From IMG/VR virus record IMGVR_UViG_3300037963_002983: DNA of 64,000 nt; one strand, 5' to 3'. How positions within the stretch are numbered: position 1 is the stretch's first letter; each line of letters starts with the position of its first letter. The position numbers and the translations under genes were made by a program. Of the stretch, positions 15,796 to 58,959 are shown piece after piece. The notes below the pieces were generated by a model. That model did not search any database, was not told the DNA's origin, and saw only the letters and a program-made list of their open reading frames with translations. This stretch comes from an uncultured virus (IMG/VR IMGVR_UViG_3300037963_002983). Its lineage: Duplodnaviria > Heunggongvirae > Uroviricota > Caudoviricetes.

Positions 15796-16151
15796 CTCTT
15801 TTCCTCCTTTGGTGGATATACTAAATCTCTTAACTGTCTGTAAAGCAACTCATAGTCCTTTCGGAGTTCCGTAGCCGAAGCGACTATATCTATATTCCGT
15901 TCATCCATAGACTTCATTTTCTTTGTAAGTTTCTTATCGGACTTAACCAACTCTACATCTTTTAATGCACTAATTAATTCGCCTAACTTAGTAAAGTCTT
16001 GTCCAAAAAATTCAGTTGGTTGGGCTGATTGTAATACTTTCTTTAGACGCTTAGTTTGTTTCTTATCTAATGTGTCTAATATATTCTTCTTTACTTTTTC
16101 TTCTTTCTTTATGGTAAATTCTTTACCTTCCTCGTAGTAATCCCATGTCAT
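15792..16151 (-). CDS. Hypothetical coiled-coil protein
   Basis: 119 aa ORF with ATGA overlap. Confidence 0.6.
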   Translation of the reverse strand: MTWDYYEEGKEFTIKKEEKVKKNILDTLDKKQTKRLKKVLQSAQPTEFFGQDFTKLGELISALKDVELVKSDKKLTKKMKSMDERNIDIVASATELRKDYELLYRQLRDLVYPPKEEKR

Positions 16152-19100
16152 TTTTCTTCCTCTCCTTGTTTTTTAGGTATAGTTGGTATTGGTCTTGCCT
16201 CTCTATCCGCCCTTTCTTCTGTCTTAGGTGTAAAAGATTCCGATAGTTTTTCGATGTTTCTGTCATGTATGTCTTTAAGTTTTTGTAAGTTTTTAATATA
16301 TGTATCGTAAACATCCGTAAAGTCCATTATTCTAGATAATTCTTTACCTAAAACTTCATCTGCTAGAATTTTTTCAAAGTCTCTTCCTTCTTTATCTGAT
16401 TTTATACCTATTTTAATGTTAAATTCGCTCAAGTCCACTAATTTATTTTTAGTTTTGAATGTTTTTAACAAATCTTCAAATTCATCTTCCAACTGTTCTA
16501 TCATAGCCGTTGAGATTTTATATTGTTCTTGGCGTGTTTTGGGCTTTCCATCTTTTAGATACTGTTCTCTTTCTTTAGGGTCTGTTGGAACTAAAGATTC
16601 TATTTCCTTTTTGTTACTTTTAAAATGTTGAAGGAAAGCCTTCTCAATAGGTTTTATTAAGTCTTCATCGGAAATATCCGTTTCCATTAATTCTTCTATG
16701 CTATCAACCTTTTTTTGATTTGCTAGTGGTGTAAATGCTCCCATAACTATTCTTTCTCCATCTTGGGGAGAGATAGGTATTGGCGAAATATGTCTAAATA
16801 TTTTAGTAGTGAAAATTTTCTTTTGTTTTCTATCCGCTTCAATGCGTTCTTTACTAGTTTTGATTGGTTTTTTTTCCGCTAATAATTCTTCAAGTTTAGG
16901 AGAACTATAATCGGGATTTTCTTTTCTAGCCTCGGTCTGTTTTTCTCTTTCGGTTTTAATCTTATCATCTATTTCTTTTAGTTTAGCACTCAACTCATCT
17001 AATTCTTTTTGTTTTTCATCAGTTAAAGAGTCTACTTTAGGTTCATCTTCTTTGCTATCTAAGAATCTATTCATTCTTTGAATAACTGCAATAGAATAAT
17101 CCCTTGCTATTTCTTCTAAATTAAAAGCATCTGTTTCTAACGCTTTTTGTTTTTGTGTTATGTATGTTGATTGTAGTTTTTTAACCTCTTCGACAAAATC
17201 ATCTATTGCCTTAAAGAACTGCTTTCCTTCTTGTCTATTATCGAGTATAGAGAATAAAGCATCTAATTGTTCTTTTACTTTATTTCTTGGTTTATTTAAA
17301 TCTAAAAGTTCTTCTGCGGTCTTATCGCTTCTTTCGGATTCTTTTTCATATCCGCCTTCTTCATATTTTTTTGCTTTCTTTTCCATATAAGCCAATTGCA
17401 TATCCCAATATAACCTTACAAATTCAACGGGGTTCTCTTTATAGGCTTCAATGTCTTCAAGCCCTACAAAAGATTCCCCTAATGGGTTAATTTTTTCATT
17501 TATAAACTGCTTTCCTGTGATTAAAGGAACATTAAATACATTGTAGTATTTTTCACTAGTGACTCCTTCTACTTTCATTTTATCATCTTTAATATCAAGA
17601 GTATCATTTTCAGCATTCAGTCTTTTGTCATTCATAACAAGATTTGAATCCTCTCTAGTATCAGCACTTCTAGACATTCTATGTAAAAACTTCATTACCG
17701 CATTAGATAATTTATTTTCATCTCTAATCAAATCCCTCACAATAAAAGCAGGTATTGGTTTTAGTAGTGCTTTCTGTTTTCTTCTCTTCTCAACAAAGCC
17801 TTCTAGTGCTTTTAGTGCATTAGACAATTCCTTTCTTGCTTCCGAAGTTTCTTTGTCTTGTTCTAAAATACTTCCTCCTGTCATCTTAGAGTAGGCCCTT
17901 TGTAGTGCATTATATATTCTTTCATTGGATATAATTTCTCTAATTTCATTAACTGATTTTTCTATTGAAGCATATGTTTTATCGTTTGGAGAAAGCGGAT
18001 TCTCTCTTTTTCTCAAGAAAAATTTTCTTTGTACTATAACTACATCGTAAAATTTCCAAGCATCTTTTCCTAACTTATCTCCTACAACTTCCGCTTTGTT
18101 CAATTGATTTCTTAATTTCTTTTCTCGCTCTATCTTTTCTCGTTGAATCTTTAATCTTATTTGTGTTTCTTCCTCCTTACTTCTTTTAGTATATCCTGTA
18201 AGCATATTTGTTAGTTTTTCTATTTTTTTAGTTAGTTCCTCTTCTAACTTTTGGTATTCTCGCATTGACCCTTTGAATCCTTTTAATTTACCTCTAATAG
18301 ATTTTATTTCTTCTGTTAGTTTTTCCATCCTAGTATCTTTCTGTTTGTCACCTTTAGATTTTTTAGGTTTCTTTTCTATAGCATATCCCTTAACTACTGA
18401 AAGTAAATCTCTTATCAATTTAGAGCCGTATTTTTTATTATCAAATACCTTTTTTGCTTCTAATAATAATTTACTATCACTAGTTGTCGGTTGCCTAACA
18501 ATTTGCTTCATGTTTTTTAGGCTTCTATTTAGAGAAGAATAGGCAGCGTTTGTAGACCTAGTGCCTTTTTCTTTCTCAGTGGTTAATAAATCTTTAAACA
18601 TCTTTTGGTTTTTACTCGACAATAATTTTTTTAGTTTCTTAATTTTTCTATAGTTAAGAGATTCCCCACCTACTTTATCTTGTAGCAAACTTAAGTAGTT
18701 AAATACTCTTCTATATGCTTCTGTTTTCAAAGCCTTTCCATCACCCAAAGGTATTTTCTTTCCTTTAACACTGTCTTTGATACCTTTTGATTTTGCATCA
18801 GTCTCTAAGAAGCGTTGTAGTTTTTCATCACTATATTTTCCTTTAATGTAAGCAGTTAGTGTTTTATCTTCTAATGGCATAGTGCTTAGTTTGTCTAAAT
18901 ACTCTTTGACTTCTTTTTCTTCAAGTAGTTCTTTAAAGTCTCTTAGGAACTTAGCATCTTTATTTTTATCAACTCTTAATACTTGTAAAGGACTAACATT
19001 TTCAGTTCTCCTAGCAATACTTTGAAAATACTTAGTTTCTGTTCCTTCTTTGTCGCCTTTTTTCTCCTTTACACCTACTTTGCTCTCTAATTCCACTACT

Positions 19101-20218
19101 CTATCTTTTAGTTTCTTCAATTGCTCATCTGTAAGTTTATATTGCACCATCCATATAGGATTTCCTTTTTTGTCTTTAGGTAATTTTTCATCTATTGATT
19201 TATGTTGGTTTTTAATGAATTTTTTAGTTGCTTCTACATCTTTTTTGTATTTCTCATATAACTCATTTAACTTTGTGGTAATTTCTTTTTGGGGAATATC
19301 TTCATTCCTAGTTACATTAACATCCTTTTCATATTTTTCAAAAAGTCTTTTGAATTTACCATTCGCCCTTTTTACCCTAGTTTGGTAGGCTTCTATCATC
19401 TTTCCTTCCTTTGTATTTTTAGGATGCGCTCTAAGCATTCCTCTTTGTTCTTCTCTCATTAGAATAGAAAGGGCAACCTCAAATCTATCTAATGCGCTTC
19501 TTAGTAATACTACTTGCCTAGATGCGTTGGAGTCTTTTAAATTCATTTTTAGTGGCTCTAAAGGAAACAACAAGTTTTTTCTTGCATCTTCAATTGCTTT
19601 TTTATAATTGGATTTATCGAAACTATCTACTAAGTTCTTTGTGCTTTCTAATTCTGCTCTATCTTTTCGATATTGGTTTTTCCTAAGTTGTAATTTCCTA
19701 TCAGCCGTATATTCTTTCCAAACTAATTTTATTTCATCAATAGTCCATTTCCAACCATAGATTTCTAAAGGCTCTCCTCTAGCAATAAAATCCTTGTATT
19801 GTTTTTCCCTAATATCATAGGATATTTTTTCTTTTTGTTCTCTAGTCAATTCGCCCTTTTTCTCGGCTTGTTGAATTGCCTCTTTTACTTTATCTCCAAA
19901 ATCTTCACTAAAACTACTAACTAATCGGGCTTTAGTTTTATCTCCATCTTTATTTTTTAGTTTTTGTCTCTCGTCTGCGCTTTCTTTTTCTTTTGTTTGT
20001 TCTAATGCTTCTCTTTCAGCAAGTTCAAACATGCCTTCACTATCTAGTATTTCATCTCCTAGTTTATCATCTGCTCTTGTTTTATCGTCAAGGTAAAATT
20101 CATCATCTTCACCATCTGCTTTTCTTATTGTATGTTGATTTTCTACTTCTTCAATCAAACACTTCAACAAAAAATGAAGGTCGTCTTCTTTATTGTGTAA
20201 GATGGCCTTCATAAACAT
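16148..20218 (-). CDS. Large Lys/Glu-rich helical protein (possible internal head protein)
   Basis: 1356 aa, located between the portal and protease genes. Confidence 0.6.
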   Translation of the reverse strand: MFMKAILHNKEDDLHFLLKCLIEEVENQHTIRKADGEDDEFYLDDKTRADDKLGDEILDSEGMFELAEREALEQTKEKESADERQKLKNKDGDKTKARLVSSFSEDFGDKVKEAIQQAEKKGELTREQKEKISYDIREKQYKDFIARGEPLEIYGWKWTIDEIKLVWKEYTADRKLQLRKNQYRKDRAELESTKNLVDSFDKSNYKKAIEDARKNLLFPLEPLKMNLKDSNASRQVVLLRSALDRFEVALSILMREEQRGMLRAHPKNTKEGKMIEAYQTRVKRANGKFKRLFEKYEKDVNVTRNEDIPQKEITTKLNELYEKYKKDVEATKKFIKNQHKSIDEKLPKDKKGNPIWMVQYKLTDEQLKKLKDRVVELESKVGVKEKKGDKEGTETKYFQSIARRTENVSPLQVLRVDKNKDAKFLRDFKELLEEKEVKEYLDKLSTMPLEDKTLTAYIKGKYSDEKLQRFLETDAKSKGIKDSVKGKKIPLGDGKALKTEAYRRVFNYLSLLQDKVGGESLNYRKIKKLKKLLSSKNQKMFKDLLTTEKEKGTRSTNAAYSSLNRSLKNMKQIVRQPTTSDSKLLLEAKKVFDNKKYGSKLIRDLLSVVKGYAIEKKPKKSKGDKQKDTRMEKLTEEIKSIRGKLKGFKGSMREYQKLEEELTKKIEKLTNMLTGYTKRSKEEETQIRLKIQREKIEREKKLRNQLNKAEVVGDKLGKDAWKFYDVVIVQRKFFLRKRENPLSPNDKTYASIEKSVNEIREIISNERIYNALQRAYSKMTGGSILEQDKETSEARKELSNALKALEGFVEKRRKQKALLKPIPAFIVRDLIRDENKLSNAVMKFLHRMSRSADTREDSNLVMNDKRLNAENDTLDIKDDKMKVEGVTSEKYYNVFNVPLITGKQFINEKINPLGESFVGLEDIEAYKENPVEFVRLYWDMQLAYMEKKAKKYEEGGYEKESERSDKTAEELLDLNKPRNKVKEQLDALFSILDNRQEGKQFFKAIDDFVEEVKKLQSTYITQKQKALETDAFNLEEIARDYSIAVIQRMNRFLDSKEDEPKVDSLTDEKQKELDELSAKLKEIDDKIKTEREKQTEARKENPDYSSPKLEELLAEKKPIKTSKERIEADRKQKKIFTTKIFRHISPIPISPQDGERIVMGAFTPLANQKKVDSIEELMETDISDEDLIKPIEKAFLQHFKSNKKEIESLVPTDPKEREQYLKDGKPKTRQEQYKISTAMIEQLEDEFEDLLKTFKTKNKLVDLSEFNIKIGIKSDKEGRDFEKILADEVLGKELSRIMDFTDVYDTYIKNLQKLKDIHDRNIEKLSESFTPKTEERADREARPIPTIPKKQGEEEK

Positions 20219-41480: not shown

Positions 41481-41711
41481 TTAGAATAGTTTATCTTGTT
41501 TAGTATTACCATAGTTCTTAAATCTTTCATCTTTATCAGTTGTTGATTTAACATCTTGTATATACTTAATTAGTTTTCTTAACTCTGTTTGAGCATGGCG
41601 TAATTCATCATTTTGCTTATCAGTAAACGCTTTAGACTCTTTAGTATATTGTAATACTTGTTTTATTGTTTGAACTACGGAATCTAATCTGTTTCGTAAT
41701 TCAGCACTAAT
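41481..41711 (-). CDS. 76 aa helical protein with an apparent ATT start (not in the ORF track)
   Basis: AGGAGG RBS 7 nt upstream of ATT; open frame SAELRNRLDSVVQ...QDKLF. Confidence 0.45.
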   Translation of the reverse strand: MSAELRNRLDSVVQTIKQVLQYTKESKAFTDKQNDELRHAQTELRKLIKYIQDVKSTTDKDERFKNYGNTKQDKLF

Positions 41712-41953
41712 GCAACTTCCTCCTTGACATATCGTAATGTATTAAGGGTAATAAACATAGCAGTTTTATGGGCTAACATGTTAATATCAATGGTTAATTG
41801 GCCAATTTTAACTAAAAGTGGTTAATTAACCTATTTTAACAAAGAAAAAAATTTTGGAACAAAGCCATATGGTTGTAGAACGGCCTAAATTGTAATACCA
41901 TATGGTGTATCTTTTTGGAAACCCGACTATATACTAAATACTGTTATAATAAC

Positions 41954-42223
41954 ATGTCGATAAATTGGACAGAAGCAGTAAAGGAATATAAGGAACAGTA
42001 TGATGATGAAGACGGAATATATGAATATGTTGAGAGTTTACTCCCTGTATATTATGGTGATATATACCAAACTTATCATGATGTAATAGGAACACCGTTA
42101 AAGACCATGATTGAACCTCATCATGTAGGGCTTGAATTTTGGAAAATCATGGCCGAGCATATTTTTGAGGCGTTTTTAGGGCGATTTTATGAGGCTTGGA
42201 ATGAAGCAGAAGAGGAGGAATAA
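41954..42223 (+). CDS. Small acidic early protein (probably leaderless)
   Basis: ATG 26 bp after the TATA start; D/E-rich. Confidence 0.6.
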   Translation: MSINWTEAVKEYKEQYDDEDGIYEYVESLLPVYYGDIYQTYHDVIGTPLKTMIEPHHVGLEFWKIMAEHIFEAFLGRFYEAWNEAEEEE

Positions 42224-42225
42224 AC

Positions 42226-42408
42226 ATGCTAACAAGATATAACGAGGAAGTTTATTCTGTTTTAATGAATAATCATCTTCATGCAATATGTCATACTCGT
42301 AAAGGTGCTGAAAGATTAGTTAAAGCGATGGAAAATAAACCTATTCACAAAAATGTAGAGTTTAGGATAGTTTGCATGAATATTATAGAATATGGAGAGG
42401 AGGAATAA
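42226..42408 (+). CDS. Hypothetical protein
   Basis: GGAGG RBS. Confidence 0.55.
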   Translation: MLTRYNEEVYSVLMNNHLHAICHTRKGAERLVKAMENKPIHKNVEFRIVCMNIIEYGEEE

Positions 42409-42423
42409 CTCAATAACGGTCAA

Positions 42424-42468
42424 AAAAACGGCCTCATTCTTAGGAGTGGGGTCGTTTTTCCCTTTTTT
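42424..42468 (+). terminator. Hairpin with C-TTAG-G loop plus T tract
   Basis: AAAAACGGCCTCATTC-TTAG-GAGTGGGGTCGTTTTT. Confidence 0.6.
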
Positions 42469-42587
42469 AGGGTTGCATCTATAACGCTTCGCTTGATTCA
42501 AAAAGAACTATCGATGCAACCATATGGTGTTACTTTGTTGAACCCGACTATATACTAAATTACAATATAATAATAAGAGGTAATAAC

Positions 42588-42872
42588 ATGAACCGAATAA
42601 TAAATATGATAGAAAAGAAAGAAAGATTGAGAGAAAATGTTGAAAGAATTATTCAACACGCTCCTCCGATGCGTAATTATGGCAACTCGCCAAAATTATG
42701 CAAAGTAGGCGACTTGATTTATTCATATGACACATGCGTGGCCGTTTTTATATGGGATGAAGAAGACACAAAATGGCAAATTGCAGTCCCGAAGTATCAT
42801 AGCACAACCACAACCCGACACATCAACAGAATAGCAAATGACTTCAACACGGAAGTAATTAAATTATATTGA
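42588..42872 (+). CDS. Hypothetical phage-type protein
   Basis: YSYDTCVA...STTTTRHIN motif. Confidence 0.6.
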   Translation: MNRIINMIEKKERLRENVERIIQHAPPMRNYGNSPKLCKVGDLIYSYDTCVAVFIWDEEDTKWQIAVPKYHSTTTTRHINRIANDFNTEVIKLY

Positions 42873-42881
42873 GGCGATAAC

Positions 42882-43022
42882 ATGGACTTAGAAGAAAGAA
42901 TAGAAGAAGAAAAAACATATTTAAGAATACTAAAATATCTAAAGGAACAACCAAGCAATAGAAACGCTGATTCAGCCATAAAACAAATTGAGAAGGCTCT
43001 TCTAAAATTGGACTTTTATTAA
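42882..43022 (+). CDS. 46 aa helical peptide
   Basis: MDLEERIEEEK... preceded by GAGGCGA. Confidence 0.45.
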   Translation: MDLEERIEEEKTYLRILKYLKEQPSNRNADSAIKQIEKALLKLDFY

Positions 43023-43035
43023 AGATGATGATTAA

Positions 43036-43080
43036 AAAAACCCCCCTTTTCTTAGGAATTGGGGGGTTTTTCTCTTTTTT
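43036..43080 (+). terminator. Hairpin with C-TTAG-G loop plus T tract
   Basis: AAAAACCCCCC...GGGGGGTTTTT. Confidence 0.6.
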
Positions 43081-43231
43081 AGGGTTGTGTCTCGTAGTAA
43101 TAACAGTCAAAAAGAATTACGGACACAACCATATGGTTTACTTTGAAAACCCAATTCATATACTATATTGCCCCTTAGTATTGCTTCATGGGGTATTGTA
43201 TGGTTAGCATACAATCTAGGAGATGAAAAAT

Positions 43232-43735
43232 ATGGAATATAATAAATTAGTAGAAAAAACAAACAACATTATAACTTGGTTAGATGTAAACGATGTTGGT
43301 TCAATGGACACAGTTCTAAGGGGCTTAATCACATCAGCACAAGTCGAAGGTCAAACTGAAAAACAATACGAGCAATTTTGGGCTAGTATTCGCTCCCTAT
43401 GCGGTACTCTCCCAAACTCTCCTATTCGCAAAGGTACTCAACAAATATTGCCAGCACAAGTACAGGCCGTTGCGGATTCTGTTGTGAATCGGGTAATAAA
43501 TGCTTTTGTGGGTATTGGTGATAGTGAACTTATGGTTGATACTCTTATGCCAATGCGTAATACATCCGGTGAAAAGTTCGCTGATATTCAAGCATTAGCA
43601 GAATACTTCGGTGGTAGAGTTAGAAGACTTTTGACTGACTCTTACAAAGCAGGTAATTGGAACGGGGAATTGACTAAAGATAATATCACAGGTCTTACCC
43701 TTCCGGTCAAGGAAGCAAAGGAGGCTTCCAAGTAA
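43232..43735 (+). CDS. Paralog family member 1
   Basis: QFWASIR, LPAQVQ, YKAGNWNG; similar to the ORFs at 44662 and 46973. Confidence 0.7.
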   Translation: MEYNKLVEKTNNIITWLDVNDVGSMDTVLRGLITSAQVEGQTEKQYEQFWASIRSLCGTLPNSPIRKGTQQILPAQVQAVADSVVNRVINAFVGIGDSELMVDTLMPMRNTSGEKFADIQALAEYFGGRVRRLLTDSYKAGNWNGELTKDNITGLTLPVKEAKEASK

Positions 43736-43967
43736 GTCTAATCGGTGCAATACCCCATGTCGCACCTATCCTATTCATTGGGAGCATAGCGGAACTCATT
43801 TTTAAAACTAAATATGAAATCTAAGAGTTAAAACCGCTATGCTCCCGAAGTTTTTTTTAGGGTTGCTTCTACTAGTATAAATACGCCAAAGATTAGTGAA
43901 GCAACCATATGGTGTTACTTTTGCTTAACCCAATTATATACTATACTACACCTTAGTAATACATCAA

Positions 43968-44508
43968 GAGGTAAGGTGTCTAAGCAAAAACCCCGTCTAC
44001 AAATGTAGACTAGTTTCAAGAATTGACTTGAAGTAAAGGGGGCAGAAAAGTCAAGGCGATGGACTGTAAAAAATCACCCGACACTACCTCACCTATTCAT
44101 GGAGTATCATATTGAAAAAAGCCAACCTAAGCGAGATGCTGGGAACTTCGGGGAAGCGAAGTAGCAAGGCAAGCCAACAGTGCATAACTGACTTTCTAAA
44201 GAAATACTCCACCTATTCATGAGGGTATTATGCATGAGAGAAAGGTGGAGACCTAATACTTGGTGACTTATCAGTAATGGTAAAATCATCGGACTTGTAA
44301 ATACCCTCTCCTATTCCAATGGTTATTAGTGGCCATAACACTATTGAGAAACGAAGGCGAAAAGTCAAGATTGAACACATAAGACGGTAGGAAATAGTAA
44401 GAGATTGTAAGTCATACCAATACTAGTTGGGACTAGTATGACCTCTCATCAAACATGCTAAGTATCACGCAGTCACTTGTCTTGACGAAGTAGCCGGAGT
44501 TTCTCAAT
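43968..44508 (+). ncRNA. Putative array of structured, end-paired non-coding RNAs
   Basis: Promoter upstream, T tract downstream, no plus-strand ORF in the track; closing stems separated by ACCTATTCAT linkers. Confidence 0.6.
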
Positions 44509-44661
44509 TTTTTTTAAGGTTGCTTCTTCCAACCTACGGTAACAAAAGAATGGGGAAGCAACCATATGGTGTGGCTTTGTCGAACCCGATTATATACTAT
44601 ACTACCCCCTAGTATTGCTTCAATGGGTTGGAGTAGTGGTAAAACACAGGAGGAAATTATT

Positions 44662-45120
44662 ATGGAATTACAAAAGACAATTAATAGAATGAAAAGCATG
44701 CAAGCAACTATGAAAGCACAAAAGGTCAAGAATCCGGCATTGTCGGGTCTTCTAGATGAAGGAGTGCAAGCAACTGATGAAACATCGGCAAATCAATTTT
44801 GGGCTAGTATTAGAGCATTAGTTAAGGCTATGAGTTTAGACAACTTGATACCTTCTCGCTCTACTCTACCGGAAGGAGTTCAAGCAAGCATTCAAACTGC
44901 ATGTGCTGATGTTGAAGAAGCATCAATCGCTTTCTTCAATCACGGCATGGTTAGTCAAGTTATCTTTAGACATGGTAAATCCGGCGGTGGCACTTTTGCT
45001 ACTGCTGAAGACTATGCTAAGGTAATGTCTCAAATGACTGCCGGAAAACTACGACAACACTACAACAATAAAACTTGGGATGGTTCACTTCCCGTAGCCA
45101 TAACGGAGGCTCTACAATAA
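44662..45120 (+). CDS. Paralog family member 2
   Basis: GGAGG RBS; QFWASIR, RHGKSGGG, YNNKTWDG. Confidence 0.7.
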   Translation: MELQKTINRMKSMQATMKAQKVKNPALSGLLDEGVQATDETSANQFWASIRALVKAMSLDNLIPSRSTLPEGVQASIQTACADVEEASIAFFNHGMVSQVIFRHGKSGGGTFATAEDYAKVMSQMTAGKLRQHYNNKTWDGSLPVAITEALQ

Positions 45121-45382
45121 ATCCGTTGAAGCCACAAAACAACCCATTGTCGCACCTACTATTCAACTAATTAGTCGCAGGGGTGAAGAAACTCTTACAG
45201 GGCAGAGAATAAGTCCTACTTAAGAGAAATGAAAAAATTCACTCACCCCTGCGGTCTATGCAGTTTTTTTTAAGGTTGTTTCTACTAGCCTACGGCGACA
45301 AAAGATTAGTGAAACAACCATATGGTTCACTTTGAGAACTCGATTAATATACTATACACCCTCATTATATTGGTGATAAACT

Positions 45383-46132
45383 ATGGCAATAGAATATAAT
45401 AGAACTATGAAAATAAGATATGAGCATGATGAAAGACTCAATCAAAAAGAAGAAGCGAAGTTGGCTCAACAACTACAAAAGAAAGGTTTGACAATGATGA
45501 CAACCTATTGGGGCGAATTTCCCGAATACGGCTATAATACCATAACTACGAAAACAACAAGACACGGTATATACATTGATGATGAACTAATCTTTACTGT
45601 TAAATACATTTCAACTGCAAATGAAATAGTTGAAGGTTTGTCAAATAAATTTGATAATGTAAGCACTGATAGAATAGTAAGTGAAACCACTAAGAAAGAT
45701 TGGGTAAATCCAAAGGGTGATTATCTAGTCCCTGCTTTTGATGATTCATCCTACCTTTCTTACCCACCAACAGAAGATAGTCTATTTGACTTTAAAGAAG
45801 TTGAAAGAGATAATAAAATAACTTTGGACAATGGAGTTCAAATTAGAATAGAACTTGAGAATAACTATGATGGTATGGAATTGATTTTCAAAACAATTTG
45901 GAATTGTGAAACAGTCCAAAGAAAGGAAACAATTGAAGAATACATGGTGGCTTTCCCACTTGAAATACTTGGTAAAGTCCAAAGTGTAGTTGAAAGAGTC
46001 TTGAAGACAAAACAATTCGGTTATGATGTTGATAGTGTTGATATTGATTGTAATTTCAAAGCAATCACTCTCAATGAAAGTAAATGCACACCCGATATTG
46101 TAAAAATGACAAGGGAGGCTAGAAACCAATGA
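45383..46132 (+). CDS. Hypothetical protein
   Basis: 249 aa; GGTGA RBS behind promoter 6. Confidence 0.65.
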   Translation: MAIEYNRTMKIRYEHDERLNQKEEAKLAQQLQKKGLTMMTTYWGEFPEYGYNTITTKTTRHGIYIDDELIFTVKYISTANEIVEGLSNKFDNVSTDRIVSETTKKDWVNPKGDYLVPAFDDSSYLSYPPTEDSLFDFKEVERDNKITLDNGVQIRIELENNYDGMELIFKTIWNCETVQRKETIEEYMVAFPLEILGKVQSVVERVLKTKQFGYDVDSVDIDCNFKAITLNESKCTPDIVKMTREARNQ

Positions 46133-46277
46133 AGTTAAGAAAATTGAATAGATGTGAAATTTGTAGTAGAAGAATAAGCGATAAACACACTCACTGCTAC
46201 CATTGTAGAAGTAGCCCAAATTGTCAAAAAGACAAACACGAATAAGATTCAACAAAGTTCTGTTGAATATTGCTAAC

Positions 46278-46332
46278 GGGGCATAAGGGATAAAATACCA
46301 AAATGGAAATCCCTTATGCCCCAATTTTATTT
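46278..46332 (+). terminator. 14 bp hairpin plus T tract
   Basis: GGGGCATAAGGGAT...ATCCCTTATGCCCC. Confidence 0.6.
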
Positions 46333-46538
46333 AGGGTTATACTTTCAGCCTAAAGGCGACAAAGAATGAGAGTATAACCAAACTAATTTATAACCATAAG
46401 CCCTCATTTGTACCTAACTTGTCATAACCAAAAAACAACTACCTCTTTAACACACTCCTTCAATTGAATGTATAGAGTATTGAAAATATTTATTGGAATA
46501 TTAGTATTGTATAGTATATAGTATAGAAGTTCGGAAAG

Positions 46539-46836
46539 TGGACAGGCAAGGAGGCAGGGGTGTCCACTAAAATGTCCACTTTTTATTGTGTAGTTTCTTG
46601 ATAGTAATTAATTTATTATTAATATTATTAATAATAATATATATTATGGACATTATGGACATTATGGACACTATATCTATCTTACCCCCTCCCCCTACTT
46701 CTAATAACTATTAAGATTCTTTATAGTTATTTTTATTCCATATATCCTAGAGGGGTGTCCAATATGTCCATAATGTCCAACTTCCTCGCAGTCCATCGTT
46801 TTGGGGGTGTCCATTGAGTGTCCATTGGAGTGTCCA
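46539..46836. repeat. TGTCCA/TGGACA iteron cluster around an AT-rich palindrome; probable replication origin
   Basis: 12 hexamer copies; AT-only inverted repeat at 46613-46637. Confidence 0.65.
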
Positions 46837-46972
46837 TAAAATTCAGTAAGGGAAAATTGCTCATATTGAAATTAACGGTAATAGTTTCTTTATCGTTTAT
46901 TTTAAACATAGTAAAGTCTCTAGGATAACTATGAAGGCTCATTTTATATGTAAATTCAATATAAAGAAAATA

Positions 46973-47443
46973 ATGGAAGAAGATAAGTGGCAACATATCA
47001 AATTAGATGTAGAAGAATATTTAGAGTCGGGGGCTGAATTGTCCGAAGGCATTGTTCAAGTAATTAGACTAAACCTAACAATTGGTGAAACTCAACCAAA
47101 CGAAAGAAAGGGTATTGTTAAGGCGATAAAGGCTATGTTAGCAGGTAAAGAAGGAACGCCTTTCCACAAAGGAAACAAGAGCGACCTACCGGCAAAGGTA
47201 AGAGTAGTCGTAGAGCAATTAGGTAAAACAATGTATAATGCTTCTATAACATACATGGGGTATCATGCAGTTATGCAATACATTACCCCAAGACACAAGA
47301 AATCCGGTGGAGGTTTTTACAAGAGTGATAAGGAGTTCGCATTGGCTAATAAAAAGAGGCTAATGACGAGGCTCAAAAAAGAGTATCGAGATGGGCATTG
47401 GGATGGGACAGTAGATGGACTAATGCCTCTTGAAGAGGAGTAA
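46973..47443 (+). CDS. Paralog family member 3
   Basis: LPAKVR, PRHKKSGGG, YRDGHWDG. Confidence 0.65.
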   Translation: MEEDKWQHIKLDVEEYLESGAELSEGIVQVIRLNLTIGETQPNERKGIVKAIKAMLAGKEGTPFHKGNKSDLPAKVRVVVEQLGKTMYNASITYMGYHAVMQYITPRHKKSGGGFYKSDKEFALANKKRLMTRLKKEYRDGHWDGTVDGLMPLEEE

Positions 47444-53517: not shown

Positions 53518-54663
53518 ATGAGAGAAATAAGAATGAGAATAAGTAAGCCTCAAGACGGAGGGATTGATTATGCGACTATTATTAGCAGTGATTTGTTTGA
53601 AAGAGCAGGTCATGTTATGCAAACAATTTACCCCGATAGAGGCGCAAAAGACCCACTTCATCACTCAATAAAGTTATGGTTCAAACAAATGCTAACTAAG
53701 CCTAAAACAACTAGATGGGGACATACTAATAGTAAGCCCAATCAATTGAGGGAAGGTGATTTTGAAGGAGTATTCTACATAAAACAATGCCCTATATCTT
53801 TGATTAGAAAGGGCAGTAAGTATAGAATAAATGGTAAAGCGGAAAGTATCGCTACCATTAGTAATGTGCTTGCTAGAGTATTGTTTAAATCCTGCTTTAC
53901 TGATGATAACGGAGAATTGATGAAAACTTTATTTTCAGCACTAAGCCTATCCGAAGACATAAAATATGTCTTGGAAAATAGAGTTCCTTATCATTTCTTT
54001 AATGACTTTGCTAAGGAAGAAGTAAGATTAAATGTTGCTCAAATAGGAGATAAAGAATTTGCCTTAGAGATTGGTGACGGTGTTTGGGGTAATATGTCAA
54101 TGAAAGATTTACAGTCCTTTTGTGGCTATTATATACATGGTAGACAAAATAGTAAATTTAAGAGAATGGGCCTAAAAAGACTCTATCAAACTATTATTGG
54201 TGAAGAACCTTTAGTTTCGGACATTAAGAGAATGAAAGCATTCTTGATGCAAAATAGAACACAAGACTTGGTGGAGAATAGGGCTAAGCAATTATTAACA
54301 GATATGGCTAACAAACATCCTACTAGAATAAAAATGGTATGGGATGATGGAGAACCACAGACTATGTATGTTGTTGGTAATGAATATGATTGGAAGTTAC
54401 AGAATAGCCAATTCAAAAGTAACATACAAATGGTATCTACTTTTGTATATCAACCTAAAGGAGACGGTAAGAAATGGGGTTGGGTAGGCCCAATTTGTAT
54501 AGATAATATGGCTAGAGGTTCTTCTCTAGGCGACCAATTCGCAACAAGAGCATTAGCAGTTATGAATGATAATTTAACGGTAGCAAGAGTAAATACGATT
54601 AAAGGCTACCTAAAAACAAAACCAAATAAAAAACAAAGAGTTGATATTGATGAAATGTCTTGA
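53518..54663 (+). CDS. Hypothetical protein, possibly with a C-terminal E2-like domain
   Basis: GPICID resembles the E2 active-site GxIC motif; lies between the Ubl and E1 genes. Confidence 0.4.
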   Translation: MREIRMRISKPQDGGIDYATIISSDLFERAGHVMQTIYPDRGAKDPLHHSIKLWFKQMLTKPKTTRWGHTNSKPNQLREGDFEGVFYIKQCPISLIRKGSKYRINGKAESIATISNVLARVLFKSCFTDDNGELMKTLFSALSLSEDIKYVLENRVPYHFFNDFAKEEVRLNVAQIGDKEFALEIGDGVWGNMSMKDLQSFCGYYIHGRQNSKFKRMGLKRLYQTIIGEEPLVSDIKRMKAFLMQNRTQDLVENRAKQLLTDMANKHPTRIKMVWDDGEPQTMYVVGNEYDWKLQNSQFKSNIQMVSTFVYQPKGDGKKWGWVGPICIDNMARGSSLGDQFATRALAVMNDNLTVARVNTIKGYLKTKPNKKQRVDIDEMS

Positions 54664-55483
54664 ATGTAATGGAAATAAATTTACAATGAATGAAAGAATG
54701 GGAGAACTAACTTGTAATGATTGTGGCCTAGTAGCCATAACCGAGTTGTTTGAGCAGAGCGTAAGTTCTTTCGATAGAAAGGGAGACTTAATTCACTCGC
54801 CGGACAAAGTATTAGGTTCAGCCCCTACTAGTTTAGTTCCTAGTTGGGCCAAATCTAATAATGTTCATTTGGAAAATGGGCTTAGAATGTGTAATATGTT
54901 GTTATCAACATTGATGCCAAAACACCCATTGAAAGATAGAGTCGAAGAGTGCTATATTCAACTATACAGAAAGAATGTTTTGACTACTCTAGGTATTGAA
55001 GAAAAAGCAACTGCGGTTGTTTATTATGTTCTAAAAGAAAACAGAACTCCTATTCCACTCAAGGAATTAAGGAGAGAATTTTCTTGTAATACTAGAACTT
55101 TGAACAGGGCAATAAAAAGAATTAACAAACACTATAATGCTCCTAGAAAGGATGGAGCAGACCCAACTTACATGTTGAAAAGAATAACTTCTAAAATAAC
55201 ACTTGATTTGGAGTTTGCTTCAAAGTGTCAAGAAGTATTAGAAGTGTTTGAAACAATAACTAAAGATATGGATTGTGCTAAAGGCACAGTCTATTATGCT
55301 AGTATTTGTTGGATTACTAAGAATATGTTTTTGCATCCAATAAAACAAAAAGATATTGCGAGAAAGGCCAAAGTGTCTATCTCGTCGATAAAATTAACCA
55401 CAAAGAAACTGTTGGCTTTGATTGGTTATGAGAATTGTTCTCAAATAAAAGGAAAACAGATAAATGAAATAAGGAGAAATTGA
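54650..55483 (+). CDS. tfb: Transcription factor TFIIB/TFB homolog
   Basis: CLEC...GELTCNDCGLV zinc ribbon followed by two cyclin-like repeats with HTH. Confidence 0.8.
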   Translation: MKCLECNGNKFTMNERMGELTCNDCGLVAITELFEQSVSSFDRKGDLIHSPDKVLGSAPTSLVPSWAKSNNVHLENGLRMCNMLLSTLMPKHPLKDRVEECYIQLYRKNVLTTLGIEEKATAVVYYVLKENRTPIPLKELRREFSCNTRTLNRAIKRINKHYNAPRKDGADPTYMLKRITSKITLDLEFASKCQEVLEVFETITKDMDCAKGTVYYASICWITKNMFLHPIKQKDIARKAKVSISSIKLTTKKLLALIGYENCSQIKGKQINEIRRN

Positions 55484-57230: not shown

Positions 57231-57451
57231 AAGCAATTGGAAATTGGGTATTGGTAGAAATAGGAAAAGAAAAGACTAGTGGTGGAATTATATCTTCCGC
57301 TAACAACAAGGGCAAGGTTATTCATTGTTCTTGTGATAAGAACCTAAATGGTAGACTAGTATATTTTAGTAATAGGAATGAGTATAATTCAGTCGGTGAA
57401 TATATTGCAGTTCCTTATGAAAATATTATGGCAGTGGAGAAGATAAAATGA
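57227..57451 (+). CDS. groES: Co-chaperonin GroES-like
   Basis: AIGNWVLVE...KTSGGII...ENIMAV. Confidence 0.8.
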   Translation: MKAIGNWVLVEIGKEKTSGGIISSANNKGKVIHCSCDKNLNGRLVYFSNRNEYNSVGEYIAVPYENIMAVEKIK

Positions 57452-58959
57452 TAATTAATGGAAGTGAAGTAAAGGAAAAACTGTTGAAAGGCATAGACAT
57501 AGTTGCTAATACAGTAAAACCTACACTTGGCCCACAAGCCAAGACAGTTATATTACAAGGTAATCCACCTGTTGTAATTAATGATGGAGTTACAATTACA
57601 AAATATATTAGTGATGAAGACCCCTATGTTCAAATGGGAATACAACTAGTTCAAAACTTAGCAAGTAAAGCGCAAGAGGGTAGTGGTGATGGAACTACTA
57701 CCGCTTGTATTCTTGCTCAAGCATTGTGTCATAATATGTTAGATGCACCGGAAATGAATGTTCATCAATTTAATAATAGAATTGAATCATTGAAACTTCT
57801 CACAATTCAATTTCTAGATAAAGAAGCGCAAGAAGTTGATGATGGAGACATTACTAATATTGCCACAATAGCGGCCAATAATGATTCTCATTTGGGTTCT
57901 TTGATTGCCGAGGCCATTGATAAAGTTGGGCGTGATGGTATTATCACTGTTGAAGAATCTAAAACACATAATACTGAAATTGTAGTAAGAAAAGGATTAG
58001 AGATTGATGAAGGTTATATGAGTCATTTAATGGCTAATAGTGAAGATGGTAAATGCACATTTGATAGTCCACTGATTTTCTTATCTAACTTAGCGATAAG
58101 AAACTTTAGTGAAATATTACCTATGATGGAACATGCGGCAAGTAAGAATTTACCTCTAGTTATATTCTGTAAAGGAATGGAAGGTAATGCTATGAACAAT
58201 GTAGTTATGAATCTTTTACAAAAGACAATAGAAGTTGCAGTAATTACCGCACCTAACTTTGGTGATGCTCAATTAGATGAGTTGGCTGATATTGCAGGAG
58301 TTGTTGGTGGAACAGTCTATACAGATGAAAGCAAAGACGACCCTAAGAAAATACATTCACATACTTTTGGAAGTTGCGACACTATTACAATTACTAAAGA
58401 TAAAACAATCTTTGTTGGAGGTAATAGACCACTAACAGAAAACAGAATAACTACACTAAAAGGAACACTTGAAGATTCTCAAGACGAGTATGACAAACTT
58501 AGGCTTAAGAAAAGAATAGCAAGGCTTAGTGGTGGCGTTGCTACAATTAAAGTCGGTGCTTCATCATCTATTGAAATGAGAGAGAAGAAAGAAAGATTAG
58601 ACGATGCTCTTAATGCTACAAAAGCCGCACTAGAAGAAGGGATTATTGTTGGCGGTGGACTAACATTAGCAAAGGTCGCAAAGAAAGCAATAAAAGGAAC
58701 AAAACATTGTGGGTGGTTTGAGTTAGCCATGCAAGAACCAATGAAAGTCTTACAAAGAAACAGTGGAATAGATAACCCTTCTGTTTCTTTTGGCAAGAAA
58801 GATATGGGCTTTAATGCTTTAACAGGTAGCACTCAAAACTTAAGAAAAGCAGGAGTCTTTGACCCCGTTAAAGTAACTAAGAATAGTTTCTTAGCGGCTA
58901 TGTCTATCGCACAACTTTTCTATTCAACCGATGTAGCAGTATTATTGCCGGAGGAATAA
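57448..58959 (+). CDS. groEL: Group I chaperonin
   Basis: TLGP, NDGVTI, GDGTTT, APNFGD, DDALNATKAA, DPVKV. Confidence 0.93.
   Translation: MIINGSEVKEKLLKGIDIVANTVKPTLGPQAKTVILQGNPPVVINDGVTITKYISDEDPYVQMGIQLVQNLASKAQEGSGDGTTTACILAQALCHNMLDAPEMNVHQFNNRIESLKLLTIQFLDKEAQEVDDGDITNIATIAANNDSHLGSLIAEAIDKVGRDGIITVEESKTHNTEIVVRKGLEIDEGYMSHLMANSEDGKCTFDSPLIFLSNLAIRNFSEILPMMEHAASKNLPLVIFCKGMEGNAMNNVVMNLLQKTIEVAVITAPNFGDAQLDELADIAGVVGGTVYTDESKDDPKKIHSHTFGSCDTITITKDKTIFVGGNRPLTENRITTLKGTLEDSQDEYDKLRLKKRIARLSGGVATIKVGASSSIEMREKKERLDDALNATKAALEEGIIVGGGLTLAKVAKKAIKGTKHCGWFELAMQEPMKVLQRNSGIDNPSVSFGKKDMGFNALTGSTQNLRKAGVFDPVKVTKNSFLAAMSIAQLFYSTDVAVLLPEE

Follow-up and report, generated by a model that had tools for sequence, protein, structure and literature searches.

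The six hairpins in the early-gene array of the window (the whole 64-kb stretch of DNA analyzed, from a magrovirus-like tailed virus of marine archaea) each form the middle stem-loop of a self-contained regulatory linker, ~140 nt long and repeated between small early genes. The element is real, conserved in structure and tied to terminator junctions, and it lies within a linker that moves as one block; tentatively, we read it as an insulator that folds on a single strand, which would make it the archaeal-virus equivalent of the stem-loop in PeSL (promoter-early stem-loop) cassettes of T4-type phages. The linker provides a concrete map of magrovirus early promoters, terminators, and a candidate operator, and is a marker for fast-changing accessory genes with a possible anti-defence role. 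In the ocean, magroviruses are abundant, and their hosts are uncultured Marine Group II archaea. In the magrovirus papers searched, the words promoter, hairpin, and palindrom- are absent, and no comparable element is described.

All six inverted repeats listed in a first-pass annotation were recovered (Table 1), and a covariance model search found no further copy in the window. When folded as RNA, the copies reach -13.7 to -18.2 kcal/mol (z-scores -3.45 to -6.45), and for each of them 0 of 200 shuffles folded as well as the real sequence. The architecture is nested and asymmetric (outer stem, extra T, inner stem, mini-hairpin), with arm-to-arm spacings of 19 to 71 nt and unpaired centres of 13-53 nt. 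The details noticed at first pass reappear in the folds: a bulged T at position 10 is unpaired and followed by 3-6 further pairs in copies 1, 2, 3, and 5, and mini-hairpins form in copies 5 (GCC-UAC-GGC), 4 (ACC-UAC-GGU), and 6 (GCC-UAAA-GGC). The conserved CAAA(A)GA is present by reading of the sequence. The pattern GGTTR..YAACCATATGG has 5 matches in the window, where 100 shuffles predict 0.00. Rfam gave 0 matches at the gathering threshold over the whole window, while 13 matches below it in 41700-46950 all lie on or overlap the terminator stem-loops.

The compensatory changes claimed by the same annotation are real and strong. In a set of 23 copies (A1), drawn from four relatives as well as the window, 206 of 207 outer-stem cells are paired (71.7% in shuffles) and 55 double-sided changes are seen, compared with 19.1 in shuffles, a count reached by 0 of 500 of these; in slid controls, 32-46% of cells pair. 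A set of 26 distinct rows (A3), for which 16 of the 28 matches lay outside the training set, has 98.7% of 230 cells paired. G.U pairs in the outer stem number none in the 207 cells of A1 and 1 in the 230 cells of A3. There are 26 different arm sequences among 49 unique hairpins, two metagenome copies (L274 and L255) have the same interiors and are one compensated pair apart (C-G vs. T-A), and the mini-hairpin, with its TAC/TGC triloop, shows double-sided changes of its own (GCC/GGC, GTC/GAC, ATAC/GTAT, ATGC/GCAT), its stem passing from GCC/GGC in the window to GTC/GAC in the relative G002. Where an arm type is common to several genomes (e.g., GGTTGTGTC), the arms are identical and the apical loops differ, as judged by eye among the listed copies. 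Relatives with helicase identities as low as about 60% keep the element in position and phase, and their arms are unrelated in sequence. Since the arms change sequence yet stay paired, the fold is under selection: selection acts on pairing, and arm sequence is not its target. Mean RNA minimum free energies are similar on both strands (-16.3 on +, -15.8 on -; lower on + in 11 copies and on - in 8; p = 0.18), and, going into the stem, the first juxtaposition that is not Watson-Crick is G.T/T.G 14 times and A.C/C.A 10 times.

Table 1 Features of the early-gene array, in window coordinates
Feature	Position	Strand	Details
P0, first promoter of the array, no terminator ahead	41864..41906	+	two CCATATGG palindromes (41864-41873, 41897-41906) forming an imperfect inverted repeat
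P0 inverted repeat arms	41865-41880 / 41890-41905	+	81%
P0 TATA-like box and start	41926..41956	+	ATATAC 41929-41934; ATG 41954, 25 nt downstream, predicted leaderless
Terminator 1	42429..42468	+	imperfect stem-loop, loop TTCTTAGGA; T5 42455-42459, T6 42463-42468
Hairpin copy 1	42471..42521	+	GGTTGCATC / GATGCAACC; -13.7 kcal/mol, z -3.45, 55.9 bits
Linker 1 distal part	42519..42555	+	palindrome ACCATATGGT 42519-42528; weak second inverted repeat, CTTTG loop; ACCC
Linker 1 TATA-like box	42550-42555	+	ATATAC; next ATG 42588
Terminator 2	43036..43080	+	CCCCCC/GGGGGG stem-loop between A and T tracts; T tracts 43067-43071, 43075-43080
Hairpin copy 2	43083..43130	+	GGTTGTGTC / GACACAACC; -18.2 kcal/mol, z -6.45, 72.8 bits
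Linker 2 distal part	43128..43163	+	palindrome 43128-43137; inverted repeat GGTTT..AAACC; TATA-like box 43158-43163
TTGC initiator-like motif	~24 nt downstream of linker 2 TATA-like box (43158-43163)	+	
Terminator 3	43780..43858	+	perfect 13-bp stem 43780-43792 / 43834-43846; T8 43851-43858
Hairpin copy 3	43861..43906	+	GGTTGCTTC / GAAGCAACC; -16.8 kcal/mol, z -5.44, 66.6 bits
Linker 3 distal part	43904..43941	+	palindrome 43904-43913; TATA-like box 43936-43941; heads ORF-free unit of ~550 nt
T8 tract closing ORF-free unit	44508..44515	+	preceded by long-range helix TGAGAAAC/GTTTCTCA of a conserved non-coding element
Hairpin copy 4	44518..44563	+	GGTTGCTTC / GAAGCAACC, lengthened by two T.G pairs and one C-G pair; -16.7 kcal/mol, z -3.61, 61.4 bits
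Linker 4 distal part	44561..44597	+	palindrome 44561-44570; TATA-like box 44592-44597
Terminator 5	45176..45271	+	stem CGCAGGGGTGA / TCACCCCTGCG, large loop; T8 45264-45271
Hairpin copy 5	45274..45319	+	GGTTGTTTC / GAAACAACC; -14.7 kcal/mol, z -4.04, 67.3 bits
Linker 5 distal part	45317..45352	+	palindrome 45317-45326; TATA-like box 45347-45352; next ATG 45383
Terminator 6	46278..46333	+	perfect 14-bp stem 46278-46291 / 46309-46322; short T-rich run after
Hairpin copy 6, array end	46335..46379	+	GGTTATACT / AGTATAACC; stem and mini-hairpin present, no ACCATATGGT behind; -17.6 kcal/mol, z -6.36, 21.1 bits (E = 0.064, model trained without copy 6)

Along the linker, a terminator stem-loop is followed by oligo-T, the hairpin, the invariant ACCATATGGT, a second, weaker inverted repeat, and the TATA box; the palindrome, written as CAACC-ATAT-GGTTG, is invariant, and the second, shorter repeat has a CTTTG loop. 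Terminator, hairpin, palindrome, and TATA-like box occur together in 5 linkers, every gene unit carries its own TATA-like box, and one hairpin stands after each unit, the last included, with none ahead of the first. Allowing at most one mismatch, ACCATATGGT is found in the window only at 41864, 41897, 42519, 43128, 43904, 44561, and 45317. The stems finish exactly at the CC of CCATATGG: stems of at least 7 bp anchored at this CC occur at 36 of 123 related sites, compared with 7.3 (maximum 11) in the shuffled control and 1 when the anchor was shifted 1 or 2 nt downstream. Watson-Crick stems of at least 9 bp were found at 24 of 74 sites with T5 10-80 nt upstream vs. 0 of 157 without, and they start at most 12 nt from a T tract of at least 6; the hairpin is thus tied to terminator junctions and to incoming transcription. 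The second inverted repeat (at least 5 bp) abuts BRE/TATA at 83 of 231 sites (6.9 in shuffles). Divergent promoters also carry inverted repeats that share the GGT/ACC base and CAAAG loop but are shorter, and in a close relative (L033, 83% helicase identity) the terminator-junction stems are just 5 bp long.

Promoters do follow the hairpins, as had been annotated; they are of the archaeal BRE/TATA type and not bacterial. This assignment was made because of a peak in the ATG-to-TATA spacing (the first ATG lies 25-28 nt past the TATA-like hexamer, a conserved ATATAC box, at 59 of 158 sites) and because the gene content of the virus agrees with the published magrovirus set (archaeal hallmarks). 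Many of these promoters are predicted to drive leaderless genes. The array genes are small early accessory genes, with a content that varies among relatives; the early ORFs had no Pfam or NCBIfam match, and PHROG returned one weak match of unknown function.

Gene units are reshuffled between relatives, in which their number and order differ, while terminator, hairpin, and promoter travel together as one block. The linker of G002 is chimeric, resembling linker 1 of the window from the terminator through the TATA box and unit 4 only downstream, and at this junction, the one resolved base by base, the crossover falls past the TATA box but ahead of the transcript start. The proposal that the hairpin is a cassette recombination site at which swaps end is not supported by this crossover, which does not lie at the hairpin.

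According to our preferred reading, the acting strand would be either RNA from polymerases leaking through the oligo-T or the DNA strand displaced by them, and the hairpin would serve as an insulator or attenuator, so that each unit stays autonomous in its transcription and the operator and TATA box of the next one are shielded. As the next unit is predicted to start downstream of it, the hairpin would be transcribed only by read-through, and we infer an action on read-through transcription with RNA as the acting molecule. The nested architecture with its covarying mini-hairpin argues for a single-strand fold, in line with the folded ssDNA or RNA element first suggested; of the unrecognised RNA motif also suggested, the absence of an Rfam family holds, while an independent RNA gene is not supported, given the position upstream of the next predicted start. 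The insulator reading is supported by long stems found only where oligo-T lies upstream, by palindrome-free copies that persist at the array end, and by a linker that reshuffles as one unit, as PeSL cassettes do. Several observations count against it. The near-absence of G.U pairs in the outer stem is unusual for an RNA helix, and neither the folding energies nor the first non-Watson-Crick juxtapositions show a strand asymmetry. In addition, the oligo-T stands ahead of the hairpin, a terminator stem-loop is already present at each junction, short versions are found at divergent promoters, places at which read-through is not expected, and L033 has only 5-bp stems at its terminator junctions. 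Archaeal termination, as reported, needs U-tracts and no hairpin (PMC8716108), which also weighs against an insulator; the role of the element could bear on the influence of hairpins in archaeal transcription, currently thought to end on U-tracts alone. An intrinsic terminator (hairpin plus U-tract) was rejected for the element, which has its T tract before it and ATATGG after it; the terminator role is filled by a separate stem-loop upstream of each T tract.

A serious rival, though on balance rather unlikely, is a role at the DNA level, in which arms, palindrome, and second inverted repeat would be the platform for a viral or host regulator of early promoters (for example, a repressor shutting off early genes), bound as duplex or extruded. 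The right arm runs into the invariant palindrome and ends in its left half, the palindrome half-sites recur as the conserved stem base GGTTG/CAACC, pairs are strictly Watson-Crick with no difference between the strands, the second repeat abuts BRE/TATA far more often than in shuffles, and short versions are found at divergent promoters, all of which would suit an operator. However, the arms differ between copies within one genome, amounting to 26 types, spacings of 19 to 71 nt would leave a duplex-binding protein without constant contacts, the nested mini-hairpin and extra T would be meaningless in duplex DNA, and some copies have neither palindrome nor promoter. Long unpaired centres make cruciform extrusion from duplex DNA unlikely, and those of 13-53 nt seen here disfavor the extruded form as well as the cruciform promoter switch of the first-pass annotation, the promoter itself being archaeal TATA/BRE. 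A further point for an operator is the proposal that, in other archaeal viruses, repressors bind inverted repeats that overlap the BRE of early promoters (PMC11065993). It is improbable that the hairpin has no function of its own, its perfect pairing being due to template-switch (quasi-palindrome) correction or to conversion between the arms, and the repeat hitchhiking with a useful terminator and promoter as linkers duplicate. Such an origin would agree with pairing that is Watson-Crick only, with no wobble intermediates or strand bias, and with lineages that have 5-bp stems only, but it is opposed by a position and phase that hold to helicase identities of about 60% despite unrelated arms, by nested helices that covary too, and by shared arm types that are identical across genomes while apical loops differ (by eye).

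A structure-specific recombination site resembling the attC of integrons, with the folded hairpin as crossover point for cassette insertion and excision, appears very improbable. attC sites are imperfect hairpins at the 3' end of gene cassettes, with a conserved stem base (consensus inverse core RYYYAAC, core GTTRRRY), a variable paired centre, extrahelical bases, and variable length; the cassettes are promoterless, with their boundary in the core site at the hairpin base, and a tyrosine-recombinase integrase is encoded next to them. Likewise, the hairpin here follows every unit including the last, with none before the first, has a conserved base, a distal stem that is variable yet paired, an extra T, and a variable length, and the number and order of units vary between relatives. 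In contrast to attC, the stem base is GGTTG...CAACC, so that GTT sits on the 5' arm and the boxes differ from the consensus in sequence and orientation, a promoter heads every unit, the block of terminator, hairpin, and promoter moves jointly, and the G002 crossover is off the hairpin, near the transcript start. No integrase, recombinase, or transposase family matched among the 55 window ORFs scanned (31 smaller ORFs were left out). A further reading, to which we give a slim chance, starts from the twin-hairpin junction (CAAAG-loop hairpin, ATAT, CTTTG-loop hairpin, adjoining TATA box), which, folded on a single strand, might be recognized by a dedicated viral factor, either a recombinase/nuclease or a reader of nascent RNA hairpins. 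If true, a structure-specific recombinase or nuclease would move promoter-bearing cassettes, an archaeal-virus analogue of the integron, while an RNA reader would control read-through of early units, the first hairpin-dependent termination or antitermination device for archaeal RNA polymerase.

The insulator reading draws on PeSLs, which have been shown to terminate transcription and for which mini-circles were shown (Arbiol et al. 2010, PMC2839356). Both systems have a repeated intergenic cassette of ~100 bp joining a strong early promoter and a stem-loop, in a variable region of small genes of unknown function with promoter and terminator per gene, and in both, gene units are reshuffled by recombination inside the conserved cassette (for PeSLs, crossovers between the -10 box and ATG; here, at the one junction resolved, between TATA box and transcript start). 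By that description, PeSLs differ in host domain, in their strong sigma-70-like -35/-10 promoter with AT-rich upstream sequence, compared with archaeal BRE/TATA and leaderless starts here, and in their stems, typically GGGG..CCCC with G-T pairs, compared with a strictly Watson-Crick outer stem. The archaeal-virus linker opens with a classic hairpin plus oligo-T and has the covarying hairpin as a second stem-loop after the T tract, and, relative to the PeSL account, it alone has a third inverted repeat and the 10-bp palindrome, which is invariant. The linker would thus work like a PeSL, and its archaeal promoter places it outside the PeSL family. The linker also suggests that modular promoter-plus-stem-loop cassettes, first described in T4-type phages, arose independently in archaeal viruses.

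Among archaeal viruses, the Class I intergenic repeats of halovirus HF2 are sequence-conserved blocks of 56-58 bp (Russ et al. 2021, PMC8707807), likewise repeated in the early/middle region of a tailed virus with positions conserved among relatives; their promoter, with TATA at ~-26 and BRE just upstream, fits the leaderless-ATG spacing here when compared by description. The account of these repeats gives a 9-bp inverted repeat in one of them only and describes no covarying hairpin, palindrome, or linked terminator (PMC8707807). The consensus early-gene regulatory sequences of Sulfolobales viruses (Nat Commun 2024, PMC11065993) likewise place small single early genes under a strong BRE/TATA core that is nearly identical from gene to gene and has conserved flanks. 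In some of those viruses inverted repeats over the BRE are proposed repressor sites, and the early genes are proposed to be anti-defence. These are other viruses and hosts with elements defined by sequence, and the promoter account in that paper describes neither a hairpin variable in sequence and conserved in structure nor coupling to a terminator.

Palindrome-less copies at array ends were found in the window (46335-46379) and at L031 8673, L032 777, and L083 8441; the end copies of the window and L031 have a homologous downstream flank and unrelated arms, with perfect pairing in both.

All six inverted repeats that the first-pass annotation had placed between each terminator T tract and the next promoter are present in the window, and the hairpin is a real, structure-selected stem-loop that forms part of a composite linker, running from terminator to promoter, in an archaeal virus. 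The pattern GGTTR..YAACCATATGG was matched five times in the window (0.00 expected). When folded as RNA, the six copies reached -13.7 to -18.2 kcal/mol (z-scores -3.45 to -6.45), and for each copy 0 of 200 shuffles matched the stability of the native fold; in the same folds the extra T, which had been pointed out, came past the ninth pair, with 3-6 pairs more behind it, and the proposed mini-hairpins were present. A covariance model trained on 23 copies and used for an unfiltered search of all 64 kb recovered the five copies linked to the palindrome, with scores of 55.9-72.8 bits, and gave 21.1 bits (E = 0.064) for the sixth, on which it had not been trained; no match was better than E = 0.09 beyond these six.

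The compensatory changes claimed for the stems were borne out by an alignment of 23 hairpin copies from the window and four relatives (A1), in which 206 of 207 cells of the nine-pair outer stem were paired vs. 71.7% in shuffles. Both-sided changes were found at five pairs (55 cells vs. 19.1 in shuffles, reached by 0 of 500), no pair had changes on a single side only, and 32-46% of cells paired in slid controls. The inner mini-hairpin likewise changes on both sides (GCC/GGC in window copy 5 vs. GTC/GAC in the related record G002), and the first inner pair alternates between A-T and C-G among copies. In 1.39 Mb of relatives, the covariance model gave 28 matches at E <= 0.01 (12 training rows and 16 new), the new ones on contigs with helicases down to ~58-61% identity; the model-fitted alignment had 98.7% of 230 cells paired and one G.U. 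All copies pooled, 49 unique hairpins were counted; their arms were of 26 kinds, their stems were 7-13 bp long, and they spanned 19-71 nt. No Rfam family reached its gathering score, and H/ACA, K-turn, bulge-helix-bulge or CRISPR-repeat mimicry was rejected by eye, as the bulges and boxes that characterize these are missing.

Relatives were gathered from IMG/VR and metagenomes via motif scans and a helicase-based search; the metagenome scan had many chance matches, from which stems of at least 7 bp directly following a T tract were kept. Across the group, the promoter is preceded by an inverted repeat (GGT..ACC base, CAAAG loop), ATAT, a second inverted repeat (GGT..ACC base, CTTTG loop), C, ~3 nt and the TATA box, in this order. 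Among 231 promoter-block sites from the window and related contigs, the second repeat had at least 5 Watson-Crick pairs at 83 (6.9 in shuffles) and at least 7 at 26 (0.37 in shuffles); in the window it is weak, with 3-5 pairs read from the sequence. From site to site, the palindrome differs by several nt in its distance to the loops and the TATA box. The position of the stem base beside ATAT, in contrast, is constant, and, with a single exception among 65 cases, the stem base lies 0-5 nt from the TATA box.

The hairpin is a longer variant of the upstream, CAAAG-loop repeat, and it is located where a co-directional gene ends immediately upstream. Stems of at least 9 bp occurred at 24 of the 74 sites with an upstream T5, the presence of which was defined without reference to any stem, and at 0 of the 157 sites without it (Fisher p = 7e-14, for sites that are phylogenetically non-independent). 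Within 12 nt after the 2221 T6-or-longer tracts in 79 helicase loci and the window, we counted 81 unique hairpins of at least 8 bp vs. 47 at equally many random positions. A GGT start was seen in 28 of the 81, and ATATGG came next in 23 of these 28 but not in the other five, which include the array-end copies in the related contigs L031 and L032 (arms GGTTTTGTGCA / TGCACAAAACC) and L083. Window copy 6, whose T run has fewer than six, corresponds to these array-end copies; it and the L031 copy have a homologous downstream flank and arms that are unrelated yet perfectly paired. The terminator stem-loops form a repeat family of their own, in the window as well as in contigs L012 and L001, with TTCTTAGGA as common loop and differing stems; having an A tract and a T tract on either side, they look bidirectional.

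Each hairpin is followed by the block CCATATGGT..CTTTG..ACCC..(A/T)ATATAC. At 158 of the 231 sites it was possible to assign a TATA-like hexamer with an ATG after it, and at 59 of these the first ATG was 25-28 nt past the hexamer. Archaeal TATA boxes are spaced in this way from leaderless starts, and the blocks are predicted archaeal promoters. The first promoter of the array (P0) has its ATG at +25; in P2 and P4 there is a conserved TTGC ~24 nt downstream. A bacterial -35/-10 promoter was discarded by inspection, as the conserved TTG motif lies too near TATACT and the correctly spaced hexamer matches poorly. Hairpin promoters of the N4 type are served by a virion RNA polymerase; such a promoter is contradicted by the TATA-to-ATG spacing, and no polymerase domain was found.

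Genes are all on the minus strand left of ~41.7 kb and all on the plus strand right of it. The left arm encodes portal, prohead protease, SU10-like capsid protein and terminase, with an ATP-dependent DNA ligase embedded among these, and the right arm a UvrD-type helicase, a second ligase, a GroEL-type chaperonin and a TFIIB/TFB homologue. According to the available portions of PMC5434244, magroviruses, which are tailed and infect uncultured Marine Group II archaea, are characterized by two ligases, one of them inside the structural module, and a chaperonin in the replication module. The gene content of the window fits these traits, the ~95-kb size of its relatives also agrees with what is published for magroviruses, and we therefore consider it an archaeal virus and not a phage; the GroEL-type chaperonin and the two ligases fit published group B-like magroviruses. 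The product of 54641-55480 looks like a virus-encoded TFB homologue, which could redirect the host RNA polymerase. Megablast of the array region gave no match in GenBank phages, tblastn of the helicase matched only unrelated phages, all at < 60% identity, and the motif was absent from the nearest record (G001, a 36-kb fragment). No tRNAs were found in the window. GTDB genome contigs were also scanned for CAAAG..CCATATGG..CTTTG, and among the matches listed (at least 120 stretches, from unrelated bacteria) no link to host archaea was visible.

Features of the window outside the hairpin copies, with their positions and characteristics
Position	Strand	Feature	Characteristics
16151-20218	-	1356-aa ORF	between portal and ligase/protease genes; no Pfam or PHROG match
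41792-41838		strand-switch region	overlapping palindrome cluster (GGTTAATT..AATTAACC) just upstream of first palindrome
41864-45326		10-bp palindrome	confined to this range within the window
42429-42454, 43036-43071		terminator stem-loops	
43223-43732, 44662-45117, 46931-47440	+	three early proteins	distant paralogues (BLASTP E = 1e-7, 1e-11); common motifs QFWASIR, SGGG, W(N/D)G
43960-44516	+	unit behind third linker	no ORF of at least 40 aa on own strand; CCTATTC(C)A(A)TGG repeated three times
44300-44516		last ~210 nt of the same unit	76-90% identity in four relatives, contexts otherwise different; long-range helix TGAGAAAC/GTTTCTCA, then oligo-T
46530-46840		region directly past array	at least 8 direct and inverted (G)TGTCCA copies around very AT-rich 46610-46650
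46647-46671 / 46755-46779		25-nt inverted repeat	part of 46530-46840
54641-55480	+	280-aa protein	N-terminal TFIIB zinc ribbon (Pfam, E = 1.1e-6); NCBIfam TFIIB model at residues 89-256 (E = 1.2e-11, under curated cut-off); best solved structures Pyrococcus TFB core chains 1D3U_B, 1AIS_B (E = 0.033)
57448-58956	+	chaperonin	bacterial GroEL type (NCBIfam, 435 bits), not thermosome

In BLAST comparisons with close relatives, units of the array were present, absent or reordered. The suggestion that cassette swaps end at the hairpin did not hold in the G002 case, where a homologue of the window ORF at 44662 stands behind a different linker: A tract, terminator, hairpin, palindrome and TATA box resemble window linker 1, and only past the TATA box does the sequence resemble window unit 4, i.e., the crossover falls close to the start of the transcript and the whole linker behaves as one block. 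Ordinary homologous recombination in conserved parts would give this outcome. It parallels the crossovers of the promoter-early stem-loop (PeSL) cassettes of T4-type phages, which fall between the -10 box and the ATG in the available portions of PMC2839356. The PeSL cassette is the closest analogue; halovirus HF2, with its promoter-bearing intergenic repeats, and Sulfolobales viruses, with their consensus early regulatory sequences, come next. The element would be PeSL-like in its working yet outside the PeSL family, because its own predicted promoter is archaeal. The hairpin after the oligo-T, the invariant palindrome and the second repeat on the BRE are present in the window linker but absent from the PeSL descriptions in their available portions, and the main texts of three magrovirus papers make no mention of a promoter, hairpin or palindrome.

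Our tentative reading is that the hairpin, folded on one strand, could insulate against read-through or attenuate it. Folding of a single strand is favoured by the nested and asymmetric architecture, by centres left unpaired over 13-53 nt and by a span that varies, and the tie to incoming transcription points to RNA as the folding molecule, against which stand the near absence of G.U pairs, the equal stability of both strands (MFE difference not significant) and the mixed mismatch types. The 1x1 mismatches were G.T/T.G 8, A.C/C.A 2 and other 12 in the second inverted repeat, and 2, 6 and 16, respectively, in the upstream repeat, few events in both cases and with partly overlapping counts, as the same palindromic sites were read in both orientations. 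A DNA-level operator role for the hairpin is somewhat less likely but a serious rival, and neutral upkeep of a palindrome is improbable. An attC-like site, comparable to the cassette site of integrons, is about as improbable, with no match to recombinase families among the 55 window ORFs scanned.

The trio of early paralogues had no family match in Pfam, PHROG or NCBIfam, and a DNA-binding fold could not be assigned from sequence to any early protein as a regulator candidate. A 38-aa zinc-ribbon protein is encoded at 46129-46245. The segment 44300-44516, which has no Rfam match, is a candidate for a structured non-coding RNA, and 46530-46840, beside the replication genes, resembles an iteron-bearing replication origin. 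Divergent gene pairs in relatives have one CCATATGG centre with CAAAG/CTTTG flanks between two outward-facing TATA boxes (e.g., contigs L040 at ~3999, L065 at ~4678 and L083 at ~5383), which looks like a shared bidirectional control region.
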